The notes below the pieces were generated by a model that saw only the letters and a program-made list of their open reading frames with translations, was not told where the DNA came from and made no database searches. The translations under genes and the position numbers were made by a program. Positions 2,216 to 30,315 of a stretch of 60,000 nt of DNA are shown piece by piece. Each line of letters begins with the position of its first letter. Position 1 is the stretch's first letter. This stretch comes from Schmidtea polychroa (Eukaryota), in assembly GCA_044892525.1 (NCBI GenBank), contig CM097885.1, positions 13,270,001-13,330,000 of the forward strand, given 5' to 3'.

Positions 2216-2703
2216 TTTTTTTGAAATAAAATTTTAACCAAAATTATTGATTTTGGGATCCCCATATTTCTAAATTTAGTTGAAATGACCCTATCTTCCA
2301 ATAAAATTTTAGAAAACTACTGAAATCTATTTTTAGTAACAAGCCCCCCCCCGGAAAACGACGTCAGGATCAATAACTTAAATGATAAGTTTATGCAGTT
2401 ATAAATGTATATGTGTATATGTCCGTGTGTGTACATATGTTTGCCTATATTAATAATAGCCTCATAGAGGTATGGTTGTCTCTCAGATTATCGTATGATG
2501 GAACACCAGTAGAAGGATTGGAGCCCGCTAGACCAGGAGCCCGCTGGACCACATATACCCCCCCCCGGCCGGAAAATTTTTAAAAAATTTTCTAAGTCTA
2601 AAAGTACATTTTTTTCAAGGTCAAATTTTAAACAAAGACATATGACTCATCAAGGTCATTTAAACAAAGACCATGACTCATCAATACCATTCTCAAGGTC
2701 ATA

Positions 2704-4783
2704 TGCCTCCTCTTGGGTTAGGTTGATTCTGGATGCAGATGCCAAGGGATTCGCGTGGCTGTCTTCTGGTCTAATATTAGGCATGCATGTGAGATTAAGA
2801 GGAATATTAGTAAAATTTCTGTTCGTTCATCTACGTCTGGTTACCCCAAGACGTTTAATACACAATTACATTTAAGTTCAAACGTGACCCGTATTTCAAC
2901 AATATTTTAGGTAGTGAAATGGACTTAAAGTGCTAATTAATTTCCCTTTCTGATTTTTCGATTTAATTTAAATCGGCTTGAGAATTACAAAATTCAAGGT
3001 TTATGAGTACCAGTTACGAAATTGCAGTTCGTATATTTAAATTGGGAATCAATAAATTTAGGTTTGATGAATTAATAGCTGGTACAGTAAAAATGGGTAA
3101 TTAAAATTTTATAAATTAAACTTCCAATACCGATTGTTTAAATCATTTAAAGATTTAATTCATTAGTTTATACCAGTTTATATTAATTTAAATATTACTT
3201 TTCATTTAATAATTTTCAAGAATTCTCTGTCAATAATTTTGACAAAAATTGTGCTACTAGGACCCACTATGGGAAGCGGGTATTGTAAATTGTCTGGATT
3301 TACATTCAGCTCTTTGCGAATCTCTGACCATAGTGGTTGTAAGTGGCTCTCTCATCAACTGATACTTGACGAGTAAGTTAAATTTTGATTTTTTTATATT
3401 TATCTAATTTCAGGAATGGGTCTCCAAACACTTCACTTTAAACATGACATCTTAAATAATGGATTCGAGATACTACTGCCTGACGGTAGTCCAAAATATG
3501 CCGGCACACTAAATTCGTGTGGTGTTTAGCTGGGAATTGTTATTCATTTCAGATTTTGGGTCTATGCCGTGGAATTTTAAGATCACAATTTGCACTCGAG
3601 GGCGTTCAGAGATCTTTCATTTGTTTTCGAGAATTTACAGTGATGGGAGTAATTGGTTAAATAATTCTCGCAAAGCGCGCATCCAAAGTGACTTTATGTA
3701 TTTCTATTTATTTATGTCGTTTTCCGTTTTTACTTCGTTATTTTAGTCAATAAATTCAGCTAGATTTTTTGAGTTTTTAATTTTAAACAACCCTACTGAA
3801 ATATTTCAGTTCTTTAAGGTAACTTCGGCATAATTTTATTTTTTCTGGGGTAGGTAAATGAACTAGGGTGTTAGTAGAAGGATTGGAGCCCGCTAGACCA
3901 GGAGCCCGCTGGACCACATATACCCCCCCCCCCGGCCGGAAAATTTTAAAAAAATTTTCTAAGTCTAAAAGTACATTTTTTTCAAGGTCAAATTTTAAAC
4001 AAAGACATATGACTCATCAAGGTCATTTAAACAAAGACCATGACTCATCAATACCATTCTCAAGGTCATATGCCTCATCGTGATGACTCATCAACAAAGA
4101 CCATGACTCATCAATACCATTCTCAAGGTCATGTGACTCATCGTGATGACTCATCAAGGTCATATTATTATTTTTAAAAAATATTATTATTTTATTATTA
4201 TTATTCAAAATATTATTAGTGATCCAGCGGGCTTTTGGTTTTCGTTTGCCCAAAAGTTGTCGTTCCAATCATTTTATTTCATCGTTCGATAGCTCATTTT
4301 AAAGCTTAGTGCAAGACCTTTCGAATGAGCTATTGAAGGTATCATCATCATTAATATTGACAAAGTTATTATCGTTTTCCCGAGACCATTTTCAAGGTCA
4401 TATAATTATTATTAGTATTAGTATTAATCTATATACTCCGAGTTTATCCGACAAAATATTTTGTCCCCCTATGGGTAATGCTCACAAGGGTACTGCTCAC
4501 GCTCAACAACTCGCAATGGTATTATTATTATTATTATTATTATTATTATTATTAGTTTTAGCACACACTCATTATACCAATATGAATTTAGTTTTCATGG
4601 TGTATCAAATCAAAACTCCTATTTTTATAGTCTATCAACCAATCAGAACATATGTTATTTCAGTAGTAATATAAATAAAGCAGTATATTAAAAATTATTT
4701 GACTGCAACATACACAAAAACATACCATATTACTTTTTCCATCATTAGATACTTAAAGAGTTTAATTAACAATATTATAAAAT
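2704..4783 (+). repeat. Left arm of a ~2.08-kb near-perfect inverted repeat (partner 5889-7966)
   Basis: Reverse complement of 5889-7966. Mirrored ORFs confirm it (3519+/6924-, 4023-/6401+, 4309+/5998-). It consists of captured flank (2704-3872) plus the TIR (3873-4783). Confidence 0.97.
3982..4162 (+). promoter_or_regulatory. Subterminal repeat array with 6x TGACTCA and 5x TCAAGGTCA (mirrored at ~6507-6687, partial copy at ~2616-2701)
   Basis: TGACTCA at 4010, 4041, 4084, 4104, 4134 and 4147; TCAAGGTCA at 3982, 4017, 4060, 4123 and 4154. These are the AP-1 and NR5A/ERR consensus sites; function is inferred. Confidence 0.4.
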
Positions 4784-26700: not shown

Positions 26701-29059
26701 TTGGTAGCTAGTTGTTAGTAACTAGTTGTTAGTAACTAGTTGTAAGTACTTGGTAGTTGGTTGTTAGTTGTTAGTACTTGGTACCTAGTTGGTTGCATGT
26801 TTTTGGTTGTTGGTACTTGGTATCAGGTAACTGGTTGTAGGTATCTGGTTGGTAATACATGTTCGTAAGTTACTGGTTGTTGGTACTAAGTTGTTGATTT
26901 GTTGTTGAATTATTATTAAAATTTGTCTTTGAAAAATATTTCTTAAAAATTTCCATTAAAAATTATCATTAAAAAATATTTCATAAAAATTTCCATTAAA
27001 AATTACCATTGAAAAATATTTCATAAAATTTTCTATTAAAAATTACTTATAAAAATATTCCATAAAAATTTTCATTAAAAATTACCATTGAAAATTTTCA
27101 TTAAAAAATTTCAATTCTTAAACACCTTCAACTTTTTGTAATTAAATTTTAAAATCTTACTTTAATTTACTTATTTAAAATTTTTTACCATTGATTACTT
27201 AATTTAAAAATTATTACTTTAATTTACTTATTTAAAATTTTTTTACCATTGACTACTTAATTTAAAATTTGGACCTTAATTTACTTTATTTTAATTTTTT
27301 AGAACCTTAATTTACTTTAATTTAAAATTTAGAACCATAATTTACTTTAATTTAATTTTTAGGACCATAATTTACTTTAATTTAAAAATTTAGACCATAA
27401 TTTACTGTAATTCAATTTTTAGAACCATTATTTACTGTAATTGAAAAATTTGAGCCATAATTTACTTTAATTTAATTTTTAGAACCATAATTTACTTTAA
27501 TTTAAAAATTTGGACCATAATTTACTGTAATTTAAAAATTTGAGCCATAATTTACTGTAATTTATTTTTTAGGACCATAATTTACTGTAATTTAAAAATT
27601 TGAGCTATAATTTACTGTAATTTAAATTTTTGGACCATAATTTACTGTAATTTAATTTTTTGAGCCATAATTTACTATAATTTAATTTTTTAGAACCATT
27701 ATTTACTTTAATTGAAAAATTTACAACGTTTTTTAGTGTAGACCACCTATTTCTCAGGACCAAGGAGACTCACCTCACTATAGTCTGAAAAATCCTTGGC
27801 TTTTTTAGTGTAGACCAGCTTTTTGTATTGAAAATATCCTGAGACCTTAAATTACCATGCTTTTTAGTGTAGACCAGCTTTTTGTATTGAAAATATCCCG
27901 AGACTTTAAATTACCATGCTTCTTTATTGAAGACCGCCTTTTTGTATTGAAAATATCATGAGACCTTAAATTACCATGCTTTTTTATTGATAGTCGGATT
28001 TTTCTATTGAAATTCTCAGGACCAAGGAGACCCACCTTAATTGACCTAGAAAAATCCATGCTTTTTTAGTGATAGTCGGATTTTTGTATTAAAAAATTTT
28101 TTTTGTATTGAAAATCCCAGGACCAAGGAGACCCACCTGAATTGACCTAGAAAATTCCATGCTTTTTTAGTGGTAGTCGGATTTTTGTATTGAAAATCCC
28201 AGGACCATCGAGACCCACCTTAATTGATCTAGAAAAATCCATGCTTTTTTATTGATAGTCGGATTTTTGTATAGAAAAAAATTTTTTGTATTGAAAATCC
28301 CAGGACCATCGTTTTTGTATTGAAAAAATTTTATTTGTATTGAAAATCCTAGGACCATCGAGACCCCCTCACTATAGTCTGAAAAATCCTTGGCTTTTTT
28401 AGTGTAGACCACCTATTTGTATTGAAAATATCCTGAGACCTTAAATTACCATGCTTTTTAGTGTAGACCACCTATTTCTCAGGACCAAGGAGACTCACCT
28501 CACTATAGTCTGAAAAATCCTTGGCTTTTTTAGTGGTAGTCGGATTTTTGTATTGAAAAAAAATTTTTGTATTGAAAATCCCAGGACCATCGAGACCCCC
28601 TCACTATAGTGTGAATAATCCTTGGCTTTTTTAGTGGTAGTCGGATTTTTGTATTGAAAAAAAATTTTTGTATTGAAAATCCCAGGACCATCGAGACCCT
28701 CTCACTATAGTGTGAATAATCCTTGGCTTTTTTAGTGGTAGTCGGATTTTTGTATTGAAAAAAATTTTTTGTATTGAAAATCCCAGGACCATCGAGACCC
28801 ACCTTAATTGATCTAGAAAAATCCATGCTTTTTTAGTGATAGTCGGATTTTTGTATTGAAATTTTTTTTTTTGTATTGAAACTCCCAGGACCATCAAGAC
28901 CCCCTCACTATAGTGTGATAAAAAAAAATTTGGACCAAAAATTCCTGAAAGCAAAAAAATGAGTTGGGAACAATTGCGTAATAAAAATTTGGGAACAAAC
29001 CCCCCCCCCCCCCCGGGGGGGGGGGGGTAATTGTTCCCGTAAGCCACTATCTACCTACT
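20710..29059 (-). repeat. Right ~8.35-kb inverted-repeat arm of element B
   Basis: Partner of the left arm. It is longer by extra subterminal modules (~28550-28870), two extra 30-bp units (~27600-27680) and nine more TTA units. Confidence 0.97.
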
Positions 29060-30315
29060 CAGGTGTAGTAATAGTAAATCGAATACGAACTCATAAACTC
29101 CAATTAACACGATAGGATATTTTGACGACGATAAACATGACCGCGGTTTGATGATTGTGCAGTGAAAATAGATCAGAGTTCTTATATTGTCAAAGACAGT
29201 GACATGTGAAACTAGAGTCATCAATAATAATCCAACCAGCCACGATGAAACATAACATTTCTTTTGCAAATAAATTATGAGGAATTCGTAGATAGGCATA
29301 CATTCAAATCAACGAGTTCCACAGAGCGGATGCCACGAGTACGAACAACATCCAGTAGATAAATGTAAACATCTTGTGTTCGTAAGCCAGAATAAGAGGA
29401 GTAAAACTGGGTGCAATTAGAAATTTCTCGAAATCTAATGTTACCATTGAGACACATATGAGGGAGAATGTACATTAACATGCAGCCACACTAGAATATG
29501 GAGAGTTATCTACACCCTACTACTCAAATATAAAATAGTACCTCTGACAGAAAATATCAGTTTCTTACAAACAACATGTCAAATCAACATAATTTTTCCA
29601 CTGACGAAACTGGTCCACCTCGACAAGATACCTACCACCGTAAGTTATGGAGTCGATTTTTTTTGTTATTGTAAAATTTAACCAATAAATTTTCATGATT
29701 ACGGCGAAAAACGGATCACAATCAACCGAGCCAGACACCATTCGCACGCACCTAGAGTAACGACCACAATCAATTCTCTTTTGACAGGGCAGTATGACTA
29801 TGAGAATGAGGTGGCAAGGACGGGATTTGCAGAAACAGCTGAACAAACGAGTCACAAGTCGACCAGAAACAGTGGGATATTGAGACTGTAGATTATTGAA
29901 GGTCGACGGATAAAGTTGGTCACCGGATTCTTTCGAACGGTGCGATGGTTGAACGGATACGTGTGGGAAAATCAAGTCCTTCTTTAAAATTAGATCATTA
30001 TAACCTCACTACAGAAATTAGAATGATCAAAGTTTGTCTATAAAATGTGACGCTTTTCTGTAGAGACTGCATTACAGTGATTTCTCCTAAAGATCGTGTA
30101 AAAATAAAGGCTAAACGGGTAAACGATAAACGAACCAATTTCAGGTGTTGACAAGTAAATAAGACTAAATTAGCTGAAATCTTAATCATTTGTAAACAAC
30201 AATGGTTGTTGAAAGTTTTCAGATATTTTATGTGTTGGATTATTATTTTTATATTGTTATTGTTTAATGCCAAGAAAGGTTTTAGAGCCCAGCCGAGTCT
30301 CCTTTAAATAAATAC

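Follow-up and report, generated by a model that had tools for sequence, protein, structure and literature searches.

Two foldback elements without recognisable genes, with Maverick-type ends and a common internal module, in the planarian Schmidtea polychroa

Intact Mavericks (Polintons) of vertebrates measure 16,862 +/- 1,678 bp, within a range of 12.7-24.6 kb, and carry terminal inverted repeats (TIRs) of 46-1,447 bp, a 6-bp target-site duplication (TSD) and (AGT)2 or (AG)3 ends that are thought to serve jumping-back initiation (PMC8097293). Nematode Mavericks are similar to those of vertebrates (PMC10748475). Among planarians, the Polintons of Schmidtea mediterranea are transcribed, targeted by piRNAs and de-silenced during differentiation (PMC8532177, with a Polinton probe in its supplement), and an expansion of Mavericks is described for Dugesia (bioRxiv 10.64898/2025.12.11.693146). 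Here we describe two long palindromic elements, A and B, in a 60,000-bp stretch of the Schmidtea polychroa genome (assembly GCA_044892525.1, contig CM097885.1, positions 13,270,001-13,330,000, forward strand; hereafter, the window). With a probability of roughly 70%, judging from their sequence, A and B are non-autonomous, snap-back-like satellites of Mavericks that are copied and inserted by helper enzymes, because their AGTAG...CTACT ends, 6-bp TSDs, long TIRs and lack of recognisable genes fit dependence on Maverick enzymes. What this window adds to the described systems is a sequence module that recurs across element families and an inverted capture of flanking DNA.

Like the Mavericks described in PMC8097293, PMC10748475 and PMC6431247, A and B have AG-starting, repeat-like ends, a 6-bp TSD and TIRs; the 17.7 kb of B fall within the size range of intact elements, and the 911-bp arm of A within their TIR range. 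They differ in that no genes for a DNA polymerase B of the protein-primed type (pPolB), integrase, ATPase, protease or capsid were found, in the 8-kb arms of B and in the AGTAG(A/G) end, which matches AGTAGT at five of six positions; the full motif is present at the right end of a third, small element, C. The suffix N in the name of the zebrafish family Polinton-1N1_DR presumably stands for non-autonomous, by Repbase naming. The existence of this family (PMC9341505) makes the term 'undescribed class', applied to A and B in a first-pass annotation, too strong: A and B are likewise gene-poor and presumed users of Polinton enzymes. A near-complete palindrome, kilobase-scale arrays and a cross-family module were found in no description of non-autonomous Polintons among the results of our literature search. 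This search, which did not extend to Repbase/Dfam, the founding Polinton paper or the 2018 genome paper, any of which may describe them, returned no giant palindromic, gene-less Polinton satellites, and there are none in the accessible portions of PMC6431247, PMC5499653, PMC11296320 and PMC11410931. Snap-back and copy-back defective viral genomes (PMC13506859) are a parallel in form, being nearly all self-complementary and non-coding, and A and B would share their dependence on the replication proteins of a helper. Such genomes have been described mainly from RNA viruses and are transient, whereas A and B are integrated, inherited DNA with a putative helper derivation.

The ends of the elements were delimited by pairing all 43 AGTAG sites with all 53 CTACT sites in the window (28% GC) and requiring flanking 6-bp direct repeats. 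Three pairs emerged, namely, 2508-6797 (AACACC), 11369-29059 (CAGGTG) and a pair inside the arms of B (16297/23721). The hexamer of the last pair, AGATCT, is palindromic, and the pair was dismissed as a trivial by-product of these arms. The first two hexamers are non-palindromic and, given the base composition, would arise by chance with probabilities of 1.4e-4 and 4.9e-5, respectively. This bears out the first-pass annotation on the AGTAG starts, the CTACT ends, both duplications and the separation of the two elements by 4.6 kb (4,571 bp). The insertion site of B is the final 6 bp of a high-copy repeat (10516-11368). At position 11368, 76 contigs of public run X1 depart with varied sequence, the loose consensus of which starts with TA, and TA are also the bases immediately after the right TSD of B, which identifies CAGGTG as part of the target. 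The repeat itself has 18-bp inverted arms (10571-10588 and 11344-11361) and ends with CAGGTG before TA.

Both elements carry a run of 9-12 C residues preceded by ACA-WW-TA, a word confined to the five termini of these elements. The run starts 51 bp from the end in A and 33 bp in B, that is, within the 30-60 bp initially proposed. The pattern AGTAG-N25-50-A-C9-GG, which was set post hoc, likewise matches only these five termini and was absent from 100 shuffles. The C-run of B folds into a strong hairpin (z -3.5 and -4.6) and the terminal region of A does not fold significantly (z +0.5), so that the palindrome originally attributed to both ends is not one common hairpin. The first 45 bp of A and B looked colinear but failed a shuffle test as a candidate homology. 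The grammar that the two types of ends share consists of a few short words rather than of sequence with demonstrable common descent. A C9GG at position 2344 without an upstream AGTAG was discarded because it resembles a degenerate or distant unit of a local 117-bp satellite, which has AAATGACCCCC units at 1066-1684. In viral contigs, the end pattern had 23 matches, none of which begins at a contig end (the nearest lies 168 bp away).

The self-contained foldback of A spans 2.9 kb (3873-6797), 62% of which is arm. In B (17,691 bp), the arms account for 92% of the length. The arms of A differ only in homopolymers and one microsatellite unit; those of B show 7,905 matching positions and 33 mismatches, mostly in local clusters, along with differences by whole array units (+323, +60 and +27 bp in the right arm). 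Across 13213-19298 of the left arm of B, there are only two small difference clusters and a one-base indel. The arms continue into short-motif arrays, as first reported, and tandem arrays make up 44% of the left arm of B and 21% of that of A. The core sizes of 1.1-1.4 kb also stand, except that the core of B includes a nested 423-bp insertion. Tandem duplication of the core holds for B, with three ~300-bp units that are 66-69% alike, but not for A, where the two copies (4700-4916 and 5524-5783; 202 of 260 alignment columns match) lie 824 bp apart and straddle the arm/core border.

Several further features were noted within these elements. A hairpin at 4729-4807 (z -5.1) straddles the arm/core border of A and is repeated in the core at 5574-5660. 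The arm arrays of A at 4030-4157 contain five ATGACTCAT words, each including TGACTCA, which we take to be an AP-1-type site. The nested element of B, presumably hAT-like, has an extra internal copy of its own left end at 19684.

Such near-identical arms could arise as an assembly artefact from fold-back chimeric reads, and the junction of the inversion in A is not among the 15 contig joints listed out of 437. We regard this origin of the palindromes as very improbable: both have non-palindromic TSDs on each side and unique cores, their arms differ by the whole array units listed above as well as by scattered substitutions, and the host repeat resumes with TA after B.

Coding capacity was assessed in 41 reading frames, 22 of the 33 of B and 19 of the 64 of 2508-9400, with mirror copies and the shortest frames left out. 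None of these frames of A, B and the flank of A matched a Pfam family above the cut-off (one sub-threshold match, E 0.002). There is no long open reading frame (ORF), and neither a protein-primed DNA polymerase B gene nor genes for a retroviral-like integrase, ATPase, protease or capsid were found in the set. Thus, A and B are not autonomous Mavericks. The orphan ORF in the core of A has no homologue among five near-length candidates, 0 matches in 1.84 billion representatives and no Atlas match at 0.9. To the right of A, multi-copy DNA carries two GC-rich orphan ORFs on the plus strand (7844-8386 and 8821-9294); the second has a single unnamed homologue (74%; P0121).

With no protein tying A or B to Mavericks, they could instead be non-autonomous foldback elements of a cut-and-paste transposase family that coincidentally has AG ends and 6-bp TSDs. 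Foldback/Galileo elements are typified by long TIRs with internal repetition (PMC3573991), and those of A and B are of this kind and vary in array length. Galileo, however, is a P-superfamily element with a transposase, whereas A and B have Maverick-type ends, AG...CT, and TSDs of exactly 6 bp, and the combination of AGTAG...CTACT with a 6-bp TSD is a Maverick signature (PMC8097293). The sequence does not bear out a parse of the ends as TAG...CTA flanked by a 3-4-bp TSD. TSDs of 7-11 bp, as produced by P, Mutator and hAT elements (7-8 bp or longer for the P type), do not occur here. A foldback origin of this type therefore appears quite improbable.

The abundance of the elements was estimated from contigs of four of the 18 public runs placed on 4790-11900, as summed depth relative to the least-covered bin, which is not a copy number. 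The core of A reaches ~170x in run X1, which may come from the source sample, and ~70x (72x) in run X5, and its arm 4,800-20,000x and 11,000-22,000x, respectively, with 17,000-22,000x in the two bins around the module. The bin with the terminal 104 bp of A and flanking DNA stands at ~760x in X1 and ~590x in X5, and the first 300 bp of B, with its first arrays, at ~31,000x in both. In all four runs, both types of ends have a very high copy number. High summed depth of the ends and of the core of A, together with core genes that were not found, agrees with a non-autonomous Polinton family. Within the arm of A, the depth steps from ~220x to ~17,000x, which suggests that the outer 600-800 bp, including the module, are common to many elements with other cores; an outer arm far commoner than the core is what is expected if many cores share one end.

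These data also bear on the possibility that A and B are remnants of dead Mavericks that were made palindromic in place, by template switching or gene conversion of the host, and are not mobile in palindromic form. The majority of vertebrate Maverick copies carry defects (PMC8097293), and the local inverted duplication in A, with its microhomology junction, shows that palindromes do arise in place here. Nevertheless, the core of A is multi-copy, at 70-170x the baseline, the palindrome of B ends exactly at its TSDs and retains a unique core, and no gene remnant was found in its 17.7 kb, which makes formation in place improbable.

A BLASTN comparison of the arm and core of A with B revealed a module of 70-100 bp. 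Its copy in A aligns with two places in B, 4423-4524 of A with 18741-18642 of B (89% over 102 bp, E 2e-33) and 4402-4492 of A with 15564-15652 of B (78% over 91 bp, E 5e-15); apart from the module, A and B have in common only AT-rich low-complexity matches and C-run words. The module recurs in C (87% over 95 bp, E 2e-27) and is thus present in three otherwise unlike elements. It consists of an AT-rich lead ending in TATATA, followed by an imperfect dyad and by two to five ~15-bp units around GGGTA. All four independent copies lie inside AGTAG-ended elements, which occupy 24% of the window once redundancy is removed (p ~0.003; 0.012 when C is omitted). The TIR bodies of A and B are accordingly not unrelated, as the first-pass annotation had it, and its picture of independent non-autonomous families that use Polinton machinery is retained for the dependence, which the ends, TSDs, TIRs and lack of recognisable genes fit, but not for full independence.

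The nature of C is less clear-cut. It is flanked by a 15-16-bp direct repeat that begins with CTACT (at 56472 and 56774), and the chance of CTACT at the position of its right end is ~1e-3; C may belong to the same group as A and B. The stretch 56472-56789, which holds C, is intron-like and part of a TEAD gene region.

The module is probably either a cis signal read by a helper protein or a promoter relic; a packaging or replication signal would be the first choice and the relic the second. A structured RNA or single-stranded DNA hairpin was rejected as its nature, with z from -1.4 to +1.3 in all four copies, and Rfam has no matches in the whole window. Searches with the module pattern gave no matches in viral contigs and none in metagenome contigs; the single match of a looser pattern, L024, looks like a bacterial relaxase-like gene and was put down to chance. 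At position 6239, 97 contigs depart sharply from the module into varied AT-rich DNA, a behaviour that fits a signal used in many contexts as well as a small mobile insert. The module could accordingly be a passenger without any part in Maverick parasitism, namely a very small mobile element of unrelated origin, whole or represented by one end, that lands in DNA rich in (TTA)n. The sharp edge with its varied continuations, the very high depth and the TTA-like tracts that precede the copies in A and C would fit such an insert. However, the four copies are confined to AGTAG-ended elements, no copy lies in the window's extended (TTA)n tracts (1947-2215, 57335-57533 and 58750-59080), and no TSD or tail is evident, so that we consider a passenger somewhat unlikely. 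If the module is one, the finding reduces to a structural variant of known non-autonomous Polintons.

A does not form one simple element from position 2508, as initially annotated, but consists of a 202-bp stub of the outer end, an inverted copy of its right flank and the foldback proper. GGTGTT, which is the TSD AACACC in reverse complement, stands just before the inner left end. This arrangement resembles the human DUP-TRP/INV-DUP rearrangements, in which, similarly, one junction is hidden in a pair of inverted repeats and the other has microhomology (PMC11293582); in A, the microhomology is 6 bp, compared with a length of 1-9 bp in 14 of the 24 human cases. The event in A differs in its kilobase scale and in that the transposon's own arms would have driven it. 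In the simplest history, the inversion is likely the product of a template switch. An assembly artefact limited to the inverted flank is unlikely.

The satellite reading can be cast as a sequence of steps. The Maverick integrase would insert A and B, leaving the 6-bp TSD. The protein-primed polymerase of Mavericks would start at AGTAG, and the displaced strand would fold into a panhandle, rebuilding a double-stranded origin. Copying through such a panhandle would keep the arms alike, allow the arrays to slip and favour snap-back genomes that are almost all arm. The module would be a double-stranded binding site that came from Mavericks and was retained or exchanged on account of its recognition by a helper protein. 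Finally, after insertion of A with the TSD AACACC, its inverted arms would have driven a template switch in two steps, first, via the 6-bp microhomology, onto the opposite strand 1.17 kb past the right end and then back at a point hidden within the identical arms. Such a switch would leave 1.17 kb of inverted host flank between the TSD-bounded ends, one way in which arms could grow.

Several observations weigh against this reading. Neither A nor B shows sequence likeness to any Maverick gene. The 119-aa ORF in the core of A is longer than expected by chance (its length was equalled in 5 of 2,000 resamples, and in 21 of 2,000 with local composition), and A may not be gene-less. The arms of B, at 8 kb, are far beyond the 46-1,447 bp TIR range of intact vertebrate Mavericks. 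The ends of A and B lack the full (AGT)2, and over the 27 bases that separate AGTAG from the C-run, A and B are not significantly alike, with scores equalled by 580 of 5,000 shuffles and by 1,600 of the 22,666 27-mers of the window. C has no C-run and its left end no AGTAG, so that the grammar is not universal and the membership of C is uncertain. To these are added the sharp exit of the 97 contigs from the module and the absence of the inversion junction of A from the listed joints. The panhandle model itself is popular but without direct proof (PMC11886824).

Table 1. Positions of the features of elements A, B and C in the window (TIR, terminal inverted repeat; TSD, target-site duplication; ORF, open reading frame).
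Feature	Position	Strand	Remark
Left TSD of A, AACACC	2502-2507	+	matches 6798-6803
Outer left end of A, 202-bp TIR stub; last 6 bp TGCCTC (2704-2709), microhomology with inverted flank	2508-2709	+	
Inverted copy of right flank of A (6798-7966), ending GGTGTT	2704-3872	-	1,168/1,169 identical, 1 substitution
A left arm, 911 bp: AGTAG, 16-bp unit x2, C11-GGCCGG, 30/63-bp ATGACTCAT arrays, module, (TTA)n	3873-4783	+	
Module in A left arm, 557 bp from end	4426-4499	+	mirror copy 6243-6170
A core, 1,105 bp; includes 5524-5783, the second copy of 4700-4916	4784-5888	.	
119-aa ATG-started orphan ORF in A core	4954-5313	-	GC 41% vs 27% in core
A right arm, 909 bp, ending CTACT	5889-6797	-	907 matches to left arm
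Right TSD of A, AACACC	6798-6803	+	flanking-repeat scan
Left TSD of B, CAGGTG; last 6 bp of high-copy host repeat	11363-11368	+	
B left arm, 7,944 bp: AGTAG, C9-G12 hairpin, 49-101-bp, 30-bp, 13/40-bp and 7/14/21-bp arrays, (AAT)n	11369-19312	+	
Module copy B1, then 15-bp units	15585-15704	+	mirror copy from 24433
Module copy B2, facing B1	18628-18741	-	mirror copy 21281-21394
B core, 1,397 bp, with three degenerate units of ~300 bp in tandem (19766-20692)	19313-20709	.	
Nested 423-bp element, short TIRs, 8-bp TSD GTATATAA	19338-19760	.	within B core
B right arm, 8,350 bp, with additional array units and a CTACT end	20710-29059	-	
Right TSD of B, CAGGTG, then TA	29060-29065	+	
Element C, ~290 bp: 42-bp TIR (86%), right end AGTAGTGTCG on minus strand, module at 56646-56716	56487-56778	.	

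The rest of the window includes exons of SD2, a planarian scalloped/TEAD gene (50400-57860), with long (TTA)n tracts nearby. The TEA-domain exon (50669-50977) is 98% identical over 95% of 103 residues to SD2 of Schmidtea mediterranea; the next-best match is 84% over 42%. An intronless frame of 308 aa with CxxC pairs (32629-33555, plus strand) has no Pfam match above the cut-off and no usable Atlas match. Two direct repeats that are 82% alike (31101-31384 and 39244-39526), both ending in TCAACA, are probably related solo long terminal repeats.

The replication and packaging of Mavericks have so far been inferred almost wholly from gene content. Satellites without genes are natural deletion experiments, in which features kept by several unrelated elements should be needs of the helper enzymes; the candidates here are AGTAG, the ACA-WW-TA-C-run-GG word (in A and B only) and the 70-100-bp internal module. 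More broadly, it is conceivable, but as a whole rather doubtful, that an entire ecology of integrated snap-back satellites of 0.3-18 kb parasitises planarian Mavericks, with one iteron-like packaging or replication signal, the 70-100-bp module, kept throughout, arrays of the B type padding the genome to capsid size and arms growing by inverted capture of flanks. If so, Maverick particles could carry host DNA. The candidate features provide concrete DNA targets in a laboratory animal in which smedwi-2 knockdown de-silences Polintons. Abundant multi-kilobase palindromes are also a plausible, putative source of rearrangements in a genus with fast structural change, and A displays one such event.

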